Source: Terriglobia bacterium
GTDB lineage: Bacteria; Acidobacteriota; Polarisedimenticolia; Polarisedimenticolales; JAIQFR01
DNA length: 64,000 nt
Direction of reading: 5' to 3'
NCBI GenBank assembly: GCA_963748015.1
Contig: CAVVHE010000008.1
Span: 222,070-286,069 of the forward strand
Shown here: positions 43,926 to 54,631 of the stretch, one piece after another
Numbering within the stretch: position 1 is the first letter of the stretch
Layout of the letters: each line of letters begins with the position of its first letter
Notes under the pieces: generated by a model
Database searches by the model: none
What the model was told of the DNA's origin: nothing
What the model saw: the letters and a program-made list of their open reading frames with translations, nothing else
Program-made: the position numbers and the translations under genes

Positions 43926-44294
43926 GTGAGCGACAGCCTGGTGCCGGTTTTCCTCGCCCTGGTCGCGGCGGTGGCGATCGCCGGGGCATTCCTGCTCCTC
44001 TCCCACCTCCTCGGCCGGCCGAAGAAGTCCCTGGTGGACCGCGCGCCCTACGAGTGCGGCTCGCGGCCGTTCGCCCCCGCGCAGTCGCACCGCTACTCCG
44101 TCAAGTTCTACCTCGTCGCGATGCTCTTCATCCTGTTCGACATCGAGGCGGCGTTCCTCTATCCCTGGGCGGTGACGTTCCGCGGCTTCGCGGACGACAA
44201 GCTCTTCGTGCTCGGCGAGATGGCGGTCTTCCTCGGGATCCTCGTGATCGGGTTCGTCTACGTCTGGCGCCGCGGCGCCCTCGAGTGGGACTGA
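43926..44294 (+). CDS. nuoA: NADH-quinone oxidoreductase subunit A
   Basis: The start is a GTG with GGAGGAG upstream. YECG...FYLVAMLFILFDIEAAFLYPWA is typical of NuoA. Confidence 0.85.
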   Translation: MSDSLVPVFLALVAAVAIAGAFLLLSHLLGRPKKSLVDRAPYECGSRPFAPAQSHRYSVKFYLVAMLFILFDIEAAFLYPWAVTFRGFADDKLFVLGEMAVFLGILVIGFVYVWRRGALEWD

Positions 44295-44297
44295 GCC

Positions 44298-44756
44298 ATG
44301 GCCGACGGGGCGAAGGCCGTCGACGGCATCCGGGCGAAGTTCCCCGGCGCGCTGGCCGGCGCGGGGGAGTTCCGCGATCAGCACTGGGCGGTCGTGCGGC
44401 GGGAGAGCCTGCAGGAGGTCTGCCGCTGGCTGCGCGACGACCGCGAGACGGCGTACGACCTCCTTCTCGACGCGACCGCGACCCACTGGCCCGACGACCC
44501 CGAGCCGTTCGAGCTGGTCTATCACCTCTACAGCACGTCGCGGAACGACCGGCTGCGGCTCAAGGTCCGCCTGCGCGAAGGAGAGGCGGTCCCGACGCTC
44601 TCGGGCCTCTGGGCGTCGGCCGACTGGAACGAGCGGGAGACCTACGACATGTTCGGGATCGCCTTCGAGGGACATCCCGACCTGCGACGCATCCTGATGC
44701 CCGACGACTACACGGATTTCCCGCTCCGCAAGGAGTTCCCGCTCTACCGCGGGTAA
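44298..44756 (+). CDS. nuoC: NADH-quinone oxidoreductase subunit C
   Basis: LVYHLYS...[29 protein letters not shown] is typical of NuoC. The gene starts 3 nt after the nuoA stop, so no nuoB lies between them. Confidence 0.85.
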
Positions 44757-44778
44757 GCGCGGACGCGCCGGACGGATC

Positions 44779-51186: not shown

Positions 51187-51193
51187 GGCGCCC

Positions 51194-53167
51194 ATGCTGA
51201 ACCTGATCTGGCTGATACCGGTGCTGCCGCTGCTGGGCGTGGCGGTGAACGGGCTCGTCGGGCCGAAGCTGTCGCGTCGGACGGTGGGGCTCGTGGCTTG
51301 CGGCACGGTGCTGCTGTCGTTCCTGCTGTCGGTGGGAGCGGTGGTGCAGCTGTCGGGGCTGCCCGCGGACGCGCGCCACTTCCAGACGGAGGTGGCGACG
51401 TGGATGCCCCTTGGGGCGGTGAGCCCCGGTGGCGAGGCGCTCGAGATCGCTTGGGGCTTCGCGCTCGACCCGCTGTCGTCGGTGCTGCTCCTGGTCGTGA
51501 CCGGTGTGGGGTTCCTGATCCACGTGTACGCGACGGGGTACATGGCGCACGAGGAGGGCTTCGCCCGGTTCTTCACCTACATGAACCTGTTCATGGGGAT
51601 GATGCTGACGCTGGTGCTGGCGTCGAATCTCCTGGTGATGTTCGTGGGGTGGGAGGGGGTGGGTCTGTGCTCCTACCTCCTGATCGGGTTCTTCTACGAC
51701 CGGCCGTTCGACGCGCGGACGGGTCTGACGTGCGCGGACGCGGGGCGGAAGGCGTTCCTGACGAACCGGATCGGGGACTTCGGTTTCCTGATCGGGATCC
51801 TGTACCTGGCGACGGTGTTCGGCAGCGTGGACTTCCGGACGGTATCGGAGGGGATCGCGGGGGGCGGGATGCCCGCGGCGATGCTGACGGGGGTGGGGCT
51901 GCTGCTGTTCATCGGGGCCTGCGGGAAGTCGGCGCAGGTGCCGCTGTACGTGTGGCTGCCGGACGCGATGGCGGGTCCGACGCCGGTGTCGGCGTTGATC
52001 CACGCGGCGACGATGGTGACGGCGGGCGTGTACATGGTGTGCCGGATGTCGGTGCTGTACCTGCACGCCCCGACGGCGATGGCGGTGGTGGCGGGGATCG
52101 GTGCGCTGACGGCGATCTTCGCGGCGTCGATGGGTCTCGCGGCGACGGACATCAAGAAGGTGCTGGCGTACTCGACGGTGAGCCAGCTGGGTTACATGTT
52201 CGCGGGGGCGGGGGTGGGAGCGTTCACGGGAGCGATGTTCCACCTGACGACGCACGCGTTCTTCAAGGCGCTGCTGTTCCTCGGGGCGGGGAGCGTGATC
52301 CACGGGATGTCGGGGGAGCAGGACATCCGGAAGATGGGCGGGTTGAAGGGGAAGATGCCGGCGACGTACTGGACGTTCCTGATGGCGACGCTGGCGATCG
52401 CGGGGATCCCGGGTTTCGCGGGGTTCTTCTCGAAGGACGAGATCCTGTGGGGGGCCTGGTCGTCGGGTCACCGCGGGGTGTGGGCGGTGCTTGCGGCGGC
52501 GGCGGGGCTGACGGCGTTCTACATGTTCCGGCTGACGTACCTGGTGTTCTTCGGGAAGTTCCGGGGGACGGAGGAGCAGGCGCACCACGTGCACGAGTCG
52601 CCGAAGTCGATGACGGTGCCCTTGACGGTGCTGGCGGTGCTGTCGGTGATCGGGGGGTGGATCGGGATCCCGAAGGTGCTGTCGTTCGGGGCGAACTTGA
52701 ACGGGTTCGGAGGCTGGCTCGAGCCGATGTTCGGGGCTCACGGCGGCGAGGGCGCGGGGGAGCACGGCGCGGCGCACGCGGGGGCGGGAGTCGAGCTGGG
52801 GTTCATGGCGCTCGCGGTGGGTATCGCGCTGGTCGGGATCTGGCTGGCGACGGTGGTGTACCGCCGGCGGGAGGATCTCGCGGCGAAGCTGGCGACGTCG
52901 TTCGGCCCGGCGTACCGCCTGGTGCGGAACCTGTACTGGGTGGACGAGCTGTACGACTTCATTCTGATCCGGCCGTTCTACGCGCTGTCCCGGTTCTTCG
53001 CCGGGTTCGACCGCTGGGTGGTCGACGGTACCGTCAACGCGGCGGGGATCGTCGCCGAAATGACGGGACAGATCGTGAAGCTCTTCCAGACGGGGTACGT
53101 TCGGAACTACGCGCTGATGTTCCTGCTCGGGGCGGTGGTCGTCCTCTTCTATCTCTCAACCCTGTAG
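51194..53167 (+). CDS. nuoL: NADH-quinone oxidoreductase subunit L
   Basis: The 657-aa product has [49 protein letters not shown] and a long C-terminal amphipathic/TM extension. Confidence 0.9.
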
Positions 53168-53173
53168 GCCTGA

Positions 53174-54631
53174 GTGATGGGTGACTTCAACCTGATGCCG
53201 GTTCTCCCGGTCCTGGCGCTGGCGGCGTTCGGCCTGCTCGCGCTCCTGTTCGCCCCCTCGCTGAAGGGCCAGTCGCGCGTCCTGGGCGGGATCTCGCTGC
53301 TCGGGGTCGCGGTCGCGGGGGCCGCGACCGCGAGGCTCTGGCAGGTCGCGGGCGGGGGAGACCCGATCGAGACGGCGGGCGGCATGGTCCGCGTGGACGG
53401 CATCGGGCTGTTCTTCGCGTCCCTCCTGCTCGGCATCGGCGCCCTCACGATCGTCGCGTCGCTCAGGTTCCTCGAGCGGGAGGAGGCGGACCACGCCGAG
53501 TTCTACCCTCTCGTGCTGTTCGCGCTGGCCGGCATGATCGCGATGGTGCAGACCACCCACCTCCTGATGGTGCTGATCGGCCTCGAGGTGTTCTCGCTGT
53601 CGCTGTACGTGCTCACGGGCTTGACGCGCGGCCGCGTGCGCTCGGTGGAGTCGGCGCTCAAGTACTTCCTCCTCGGGGCGTTCTCGTCCGGATTCCTCGT
53701 GTACGGGATGGCGCTCCTCTACGGGGCCGTCGGGTCGCTCGACATGCGCCGGATCGGCGCCGCGGCCGCGTCTTCGCCCTCCTCGATGCTCTGGATGGGG
53801 ATGGGGCTCGTGCTGATCGGCCTCGCGTTCAAGATCGGTGTGGTGCCGTTCCACCACTGGGTCCCGGACGTCTACGAGGGGGCGCCGACCAACGTCGCGG
53901 GGTTCATGGCGACCGCCACCAAGACGGCGGCGTTCGCCGTGCTGCTCCGGTTCCTCCTCGGGGCCTTCGCCGGGAACGAGGGGGCCTGGGTCCCGCTCGT
54001 GACGTGGCTCGCGATCCTGACCATGACCGTGGCCAACGTGGTCGCGCTCGCCCAGACGAACATCAAGCGGCTGCTCGCGTTCTCCTCGATCGGGCACGCC
54101 GGCTACCTGCTGATCGCGGTGGTCTGCCGCCCCGAGGACGGTGTCGAGGCGATCCTGTTCTACCTGACCTCCTACGCCTTCATGACGCTCGGCGCCTTCG
54201 CGGTCGCGTCCGCGGTGGGGCACGGGGACGCGAGGTCCGAGCCCGGCTACGATCTCCGCTCGTGGTCCGGCCTCGGCTGGCGGCGGAAGGGGCTCGGCAT
54301 CGCGATGTCGCTCTTCCTGTTCTCGCTGGCCGGGATCCCGCCGACCGGCGGCTTCCTCGGCAAGTACGTCATCTTCATGTCCGCGATGCACTCGCACCGG
54401 TACCTGCTCGCGGTCGTCGGCGTACTGAACGCGGTGGTGGCCGCGTACTACTATCTTCGCGTCGTCGTGACGATGTGGATGCGCGAGCCCGAGACCGACG
54501 AGGAGCCGCTTCCGGTCCCCGCGTCGCTCGCCGCGGTCCTCGCGGTCGCGGCGCTCGGCGTGCTCTACCTCGGCCTCGCCCCCGGCCGCCTGCTCGACCT
54601 GCTCGCCGGGCTCACGTCCGGATTGATCTGA
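53174..54631 (+). CDS. nuoN: NADH-quinone oxidoreductase subunit N
   Basis: LEVFSLSLYVL...KYFLLGAFSSG...FKIGVVPFHHWVPDVYEGAPT is the NuoN-type motif. The gene starts 6 nt after the nuoL stop, so no nuoM lies between them. Confidence 0.85.
   Translation: MMGDFNLMPVLPVLALAAFGLLALLFAPSLKGQSRVLGGISLLGVAVAGAATARLWQVAGGGDPIETAGGMVRVDGIGLFFASLLLGIGALTIVASLRFLEREEADHAEFYPLVLFALAGMIAMVQTTHLLMVLIGLEVFSLSLYVLTGLTRGRVRSVESALKYFLLGAFSSGFLVYGMALLYGAVGSLDMRRIGAAAASSPSSMLWMGMGLVLIGLAFKIGVVPFHHWVPDVYEGAPTNVAGFMATATKTAAFAVLLRFLLGAFAGNEGAWVPLVTWLAILTMTVANVVALAQTNIKRLLAFSSIGHAGYLLIAVVCRPEDGVEAILFYLTSYAFMTLGAFAVASAVGHGDARSEPGYDLRSWSGLGWRRKGLGIAMSLFLFSLAGIPPTGGFLGKYVIFMSAMHSHRYLLAVVGVLNAVVAAYYYLRVVVTMWMREPETDEEPLPVPASLAAVLAVAALGVLYLGLAPGRLLDLLAGLTSGLI

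Follow-up and report, generated by a model that had tools for sequence, protein, structure and literature searches.

Where are three subunits of complex I (NADH:quinone oxidoreductase) encoded when the nuo operon that specifies the other eleven leaves no space for them? This question is raised by the 64-kb stretch of DNA analysed here (the window), with a guanine plus cytosine (GC) content of about 70%, in which the listing of open reading frames (ORFs) and protein family scans reveal a co-directional and tightly packed set of genes on the + strand in the order nuoA-C-D-E-F-G-H-J-K-L-N, lacking nuoB, nuoI and nuoM. NuoB carries cluster N2 and NuoI carries clusters N6a/N6b, both of them in the electron path to quinone, and NuoM is the middle one of the three antiporter-like subunits (NuoL, NuoM and NuoN). 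As will be argued, these eleven genes would form the principal operon for an NADH:quinone oxidoreductase of the 14-subunit type, from an Acidobacteriota-like organism, with NuoB, NuoI and NuoM probably encoded in trans by dedicated, unlinked genes.

Junctions of the operon and search for the absent subunits

The sites at which nuoB, nuoI and nuoM are expected are closed. The nuoA gene (43926..44294, +; 122 amino acids (aa), GTG start; PF00507, E = 8e-33) stops 3 nucleotides (nt) upstream of the nuoC ATG at 44298 (44298..44756, +; 152 aa; PF00329, E = 5e-44; TIGR01961 136 bits, cut-off 122), so that no room is left for nuoB. Only 10 nt separate nuoH (49330..50379, +; 349 aa; PF00146, E = 1e-117) from the ATG of nuoJ at 50390 (50390..50884, +; 164 aa; PF00499, E = 1e-39), which excludes an intervening nuoI, and the 6 nt between nuoL (51194..53167, +; 657 aa; NF005141, 730 bits) and the GTG start of nuoN at 53174 (53174..54631, +; 485 aa) cannot accommodate nuoM. 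Between nuoJ and nuoL lies nuoK (50887..51186, +; 99 aa; PF00420; NF004320 117 bits, cut-off 57). Thus, the three junctions described in a first-pass annotation of this DNA (44294/44298, 50379/50390 and 53167/53174) are all exact. Pfam and NCBIfam scans confirm the identity of A, C, D, F, G, H, J, K, L and N, the cut-offs given throughout being the curated ones.

A tblastn search of the window in all six frames, with the NuoB, NuoI and NuoM proteins of related loci as queries, finds neither NuoB nor NuoI in any frame of the 64 kb (best E ~1, with matches of 7-52 residues), and no third antiporter-like subunit, the only matches being NuoL and NuoN themselves. This agrees with the earlier statement that no NuoB-, NuoI- or NuoM-like translation appears in the window. 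The possibility that the gene called nuoN is a mislabelled nuoM was rejected, as its product scores 430 bits with the NuoN model TIGR01770 versus 153 bits with the NuoM model. Gene fusions hiding B or I in neighbouring genes were likewise discarded on the basis of the canonical length and domain content of all subunits, and family scans with Pfam and NCBIfam detect, among the genes present, no fusion or extra iron-sulphur (Fe-S) domain that could substitute for NuoB or NuoI. Upstream, the operon is flanked by an ExbB/ExbD/ExbD/TonB/TPR set, and downstream by a PTS-EIIA-like gene; no gene among these could replace the missing subunits.

As regards what is encoded, family matches identify the core membrane and quinone-site subunits NuoA, NuoC, NuoD, NuoH, NuoJ and NuoK, and, after the single-base frame corrections described below, the NADH-oxidising module formed by NuoE, NuoF and NuoG (TIGR01958, TIGR01959 and TIGR01973, the last one slightly below its cut-off). 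The motifs HPATHG and PYTDRMDY, which we take to be those of the quinone-site His and Tyr of NuoD, can be read directly in its sequence. The subunits present all mark the enzyme as a normal representative of complex I.

Gene order, selection and the NuoL arm in related loci

A scan of species-representative genomes with NuoH gave 80 loci (numbered with the prefix L), onto which all 14 subunits were mapped. The nearest relatives are three metagenome-assembled genomes (MAGs) of Acidobacteriota, namely L001 (CALMJU01), L002 (JAZGDH01) and L003 (CAWDYA01). The first of them, with 73-86% aa identity to the window (78-79% for NuoH), shows the order G-H-J-K-L-N, and the next 3.4 kb contain no nuo genes. 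In L003, which is more distant (42-67% aa identity) and lies on a 369-kb contig, the order is exactly A-C-D-E-F-G-H-J-K-L-N, with nuo-free flanks of 4.5 and 5.8 kb, and L002 contains A-C-D-E-F-G-H-J-K, running to the contig end. Hence, the adjacency of A with C and of H with J is common to the window, L002 and L003, and nuoL stands directly beside nuoN also in L001 and L003. The PTS-EIIA-like gene that follows nuoN in the window (54666..55118, +; read from its translation) has homologs at the same position in L001 (61%) and L003 (42%), making it a conserved end of the operon.

Since independent MAGs show the same junctions, the order without B, I and M is an inherited arrangement and not a product of misassembly. 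That three genes were dropped at the junctions during assembly, a possibility raised in the first-pass annotation, would fit the indel errors that this sequence clearly has; however, single-base indels do not cut out whole genes precisely between a stop and a start codon, and the same three junctions recur in MAGs from other studies, which makes this explanation extremely improbable.

Other loci in the scan depart from the canonical order in different ways. Clusters from Poribacteria, Pyrinomonadaceae and Eisenbacteria contain all the genes except nuoI, and L009, L023 and L035 begin with A-E-F, without B, C, D and I; of these, L009 goes on with G-H-J-K-L-M-N, the sequence of L023 ends after L, and G is missing as well from L035. 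The canonical A-N order is kept in Bacteroidota (L038-L044, for instance) and others. Taken together with the acidobacterial literature discussed below, the related loci largely show the arrangement to be recurrent in related genomes, an outcome that the first-pass annotation had itself named as telling against its interpretation. Its description of the loss as unusual was overstated, as the loss of B and I from acidobacterial operons had already been tabulated and a nuoI-less H-J junction is common among the loci with the most similar NuoH. As a separate observation, nuoG is apparently absent between nuoF and nuoH in L012 (D-E-F-H-J-K, with a gap of ~90 nt) and in L035 (A-E-F-H-J-K-L).

The ratio of nonsynonymous to synonymous substitution rates (dN/dS) between the window and L001 lies between 0.12 and 0.31 (H, J, K, L and N), showing, at the level of the coding sequences, that the operon is under purifying selection. 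The suggestion that it could be a remnant is not supported, taking into account these values, the conservation of the order in MAGs with 42-86% aa identity, and the full length of the genes after single-base correction.

The length of NuoL is also informative. In solved complex I structures, the C-terminal lateral helix of NuoL runs along NuoM and NuoN. The part of NuoL past residue 490 measures 164-168 aa in three operons lacking nuoM versus 152-174 aa in 37 operons containing, or possibly containing, this gene, and the window NuoL aligns to residues 8-601 of the 606 of Thermus thermophilus Nqo12 (4HE8 chain L), with no deletion of the arm. A third antiporter-like subunit is therefore to be expected, because the NuoL arm is of full length; the alignment implies that NuoL is built for an enzyme with three such subunits, the third one presumably being encoded elsewhere.

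These data bear on the idea of a functional enzyme truly devoid of NuoB, NuoI and NuoM, whose minimal architecture would comprise only two antiporter-like subunits and another route for the electrons. The one observation in its favour is that at least three MAGs have the operon without the three genes. It is contradicted by the unshortened NuoL arm, by the canonical subunit lengths, and by the fact that no substitute Fe-S protein or fusion was detected; moreover, electrons from NuoG can reach the quinone site at NuoD/NuoH only through N6a/N6b and N2. Such an enzyme must be considered highly improbable.

Frameshifts in nuoD-G and elsewhere in the window

The genes nuoD, nuoE, nuoF and nuoG had previously been described as intact. 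All four are indeed present, and full length once corrected, but each of them carries one single-base frameshift. As called, NuoE has no family match (Pfam, NCBIfam), and NuoD, NuoF and NuoG match their families over the N-terminal part only, the remainder being an out-of-frame segment rich in Arg, Pro and Ala. Four lines of evidence were used to place the frameshifts: three-frame translation, a frame plot of GC at third codon positions, a codon-score scan, and tblastn with orthologs from L003 and L012.

In nuoD (44779..45976, +), an extra G was found in the GGG run at 45763-45765, located with the NuoD proteins of L003 and L012 as tblastn queries and the DNA context; the corrected protein of 398 aa reaches 553 bits with TIGR01962 (positions 3-386/386). 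In nuoE (45999..46464, +) there is an extra base at CCC(G), 46074-46077, and the corrected 154-aa product scores 176 bits with TIGR01958 (cut-off 142). An extra G at GG, 47144-47145, interrupts nuoF (46475..47741, +), where tblastn high-scoring segment pairs obtained with the L012 NuoF abut at 47143/47145 in different frames; after correction, its 421 aa give 633 bits with TIGR01959 (positions 2-410/410). Finally, nuoG (47743..49328, +) lacks one base, most likely in the C5 run at 48713-48717 (bracket 48651-48723), and its corrected product, a short form of ~528 aa, obtains 438 bits with TIGR01973, below the cut-off of 470; relatives share a short NuoG (516-527 aa). Thus, the addition or removal of a single base yields a full-length protein from each gene, and the corrected ends (45976, 46464, 47741 and 49328, respectively) restore the tight spacing to the next gene. 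In L002 and L003, nuoD, E, F and G are uninterrupted.

Further frameshifts, flagged by the codon-score scan and confirmed by translation, are present outside the operon. In lepA (EF-4; 21056-22863, - strand), the frame shifts by a single base four times, close to positions 21880, 21759, 21582 and 21233; purL, which here encodes a large single-chain FGAM synthase of ~1330 aa (6616-10612, - strand), has three such shifts near 8830, 8700 and 8350; and a gene for an mtnA/eIF-2B-like isomerase (27465-28552, - strand) has one near 27845. All the segments of these three genes still encode conserved protein, without in-frame stops. Counting those of nuoD-G (four), lepA (four), purL (three) and the mtnA-like gene (one), at least 12 single-base indels occur in the 64 kb, and no indel was detected in the ~45 other genes of the window. 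A possible frameshift at ~33.1-33.3 kb, suggested by the codon-score scan, was rejected, this being the C-terminal part of an ABC ATPase, which scores low but is read in the same frame.

Because the housekeeping genes lepA and purL also carry clean single-base indels, those of nuoD-G are most likely sequencing or assembly errors with no biological meaning, as might arise, for example, when a long-read assembly of high-GC DNA is insufficiently polished. It could be thought instead that the cluster is a recently inactivated pseudogene set, with genuine frameshifts and with B, I and M lost in the same decay. Four frameshifts in four consecutive genes, and the clustered, non-uniform distribution of frameshifts in the window, would be in line with this; however, relatives with intact D-G have the same order without B, I and M, which is hence older than any decay. 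Furthermore, neither in-frame stops nor degraded segments appear in the nuo genes, the scores of the corrected proteins exceed or approach the curated cut-offs, all four nuo indels fall in short G or C runs, and the equally clean frameshifts of lepA (four) and purL (three) point to sequence error. Inactivation is thus quite unlikely.

Source of NuoB, NuoI and NuoM, and comparison with known arrangements

Two indirect lines of evidence suggest that the three remaining subunits come from unlinked genes. In the literature, Acidobacteria MAGs have been reported to carry "nuoACDHJKLMN operons", one per MAG also with nuoEFG (Hausmann et al. 2018, ISME J, PMC6018796). Their nuoB and nuoI lie outside these operons, on scaffolds that differ from one gene to the other (Table S2b, PMC6018796). 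In the MAG SbA5, for instance, an operon without B and I (SBA5_540024-36) coexists with a solitary nuoB (SBA5_10081) and a solitary nuoI (SBA5_50034) located elsewhere (PMC6018796). The number of unlinked genes is one nuoB and one nuoI for a single operon in SbA5, and three nuoB and two nuoI for three operons lacking them in SbA1 (PMC6018796).

Solitary genes of this kind were also found in a scan of metagenomes with a NuoI profile, in which 80 metagenome loci were sampled. An intact solitary nuoI, with both CxxCxxCxxxCP motifs, is present in L099, L104, L106, L121, L132, L153, L155 and L156, and several of these loci have a nuo-free flank of 4-10 kb and 64-70% GC. Among the sampled loci, no nuoB or nuoM was detected beside solitary nuoI genes, in flanks of up to 10 kb. 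In another form of splitting, mini-clusters with B-C-D-I (L083, L097) complement operons of the A-E-F-G-H-J-K-L-M-N type (L009, and L023 as far as L). Separately, two high-GC contigs (L087 and L091) show nuoA-K followed by 7-9 kb without L, M and N, and nuoA-I with J-N absent or inverted downstream was seen on other contigs (L102, L103 and L107, with L108 and L140 listed in the same group). Split nuo clusters thus recur among the 80 metagenome loci sampled.

From these observations, it is proposed that nuoB, nuoI and nuoM moved out of the operon in this lineage, most likely as single unlinked chromosomal genes, and that their products would join the 11 operon-encoded subunits to give a normal complex, in which NuoB would hold N2, NuoI would hold N6a/N6b, and NuoM would act as the middle antiporter-like subunit. 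Of the two alternatives offered in the first-pass annotation, supply in trans is therefore the one best supported, by the literature and by the solitary nuoI loci, and the idea of a remnant does not stand. Nor does the specific form of a B-I-M mini-operon find support, as nuoB and nuoM are absent for several kb around the solitary nuoI loci sampled, and nuoB and nuoI were on different scaffolds in the published MAGs; scattered single genes are favoured over it, by an indirect test, since the nuoI loci are not tied to the lineage.

Several points weigh against the proposal of dedicated unlinked genes. The presence of B, I and M elsewhere in the genome, and their joining of this complex, are deduced from comparison, none of the three genes having been seen in the 64 kb of this organism or in the loci sampled from L001-L003, and the solitary nuoI loci are not assignable to the lineage of the window. 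The only unlinked nuoM genes reported are additional copies, in MAGs with M in the operons as well (PMC6018796). In addition, the 12 indels fall in four clusters and are not evenly spread, which leaves room for a real recent pseudogenisation.

A different source could be a second complete nuo cluster (e.g., A-B-C-D-I-H-J-K-L-M-M-N), from which B, I and M would be borrowed, two isoforms sharing the three subunits. NuoB packs tightly against NuoD, and a shared NuoB would need to fit two diverged NuoD partners. In support of sharing, Acidobacteria commonly hold two or three nuo clusters, and SbA5 has a second cluster that includes B, I and two copies of nuoM (PMC6018796); against it, the counts of unlinked nuoB and nuoI in SbA1 and SbA5 roughly match those of the operons without B and I, which fits dedicated copies (PMC6018796). 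Borrowing of this kind is rather unlikely. It is equally doubtful that, in the lineage of the window, L001 and L003, NuoB, NuoI and NuoM constitute an exchangeable set serving two complex I isoforms or, less likely, that only two antiporter-like subunits are used.

Returning to dedicated genes in trans, the closest known counterparts are the acidobacterial nuoACD(EFG)HJKLMN operons (PMC6018796), with which the window shares the direct A to C and H to J transitions, the inclusion of nuoEFG and the affiliation to Acidobacteriota. They differ in that the published operons keep nuoM between L and N, whereas the window, L001 and L003 lack it, and in that their solitary nuoB and nuoI were seen on other scaffolds, whereas here the operon is known from the 64-kb window alone. 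With respect to the canonical 14-gene nuoA-N/nqo operon (E. coli, T. thermophilus), the 11 genes are orthologous and keep their canonical relative order, and NuoL matches Nqo12 of PDB 4HE8 from end to end; in contrast, B, I and M are gone from the cluster and NuoG is short (~528 aa). The 11-subunit complex I-like enzymes also amount to eleven, although those lack E, F and G, present here, and contain B, I and M, absent here; what they lack is one functional unit, the NADH module, while B, I and M do not make up a module.

As in the window, the L009/L023 operons with their B-C-D-I counterparts (L083, L097) and the nuoI-less Poribacteria clusters have the genes spread over several loci, with tight junctions at the sites of removal. 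In Chloroflexus aurantiacus (Tang et al. 2011, PMC3150298), the complex I genes also occupy more than one locus, with a loosely arranged second cluster and a different split. No other split arrangement compared removes exactly B, I and M, and string searches of the literature found no description of the exact order A-C-D-E-F-G-H-J-K-L-N; Degli Esposti 2015 (PMC4758237) contains nothing on Acidobacteria. Taking into account that the operon type without nuoB and nuoI had already been tabulated for Acidobacteria, although hardly discussed, only the additional unlinking of nuoM (window, L001 and L003) is new, and the arrangement is a modest variant of gene order, not a new kind of enzyme.

The practical consequence is that pathway-completeness tools would score complex I as incomplete in this genome, counting only 11 of the 14 genes and finding four of these seemingly broken, although the enzyme is most likely a normal one whose genes lie at several loci and were read with indel errors. 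Calls of "incomplete" or "frameshifted" complex I in such MAGs are probably artefacts of scattered genes and sequence quality. The nuo operon, usually seen as a conserved 14-gene block, is partitioned in several ways in the sampled MAGs of Acidobacteriota, Poribacteria and Eisenbacteria and in metagenome contigs: without I, without B and I, without B, I and M, or as A-E-F-G-H-J-K-L-M-N plus B-C-D-I. If it were true that the unlinked subunits are shared between isoforms or separately regulated, this would bear on the control of complex I assembly.

Some other features of the window deserve mention. Directly upstream of nuoA lies the set of genes for ExbB, two ExbD, a TonB C-terminal protein and a TPR protein (40289-43707, +), which is not conserved at this position in L002 and L003. 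A gene for a CcmF-like heme lyase (58210-60576, - strand), 65% identical to the L001 copy, ends at a stop codon and is immediately followed by an ORF in the same frame (57151-58209, - strand) with a membrane N-terminus; a 1815-aa ORF in another frame (55172-60619) is mostly an off-frame artefact of high GC. Near the end of the window, a transfer-messenger RNA gene was identified at 63382-63731 (+) by Rfam (RF00023, 193 bits), and ARAGORN predicts ANDNSLAFAA as its tag peptide.

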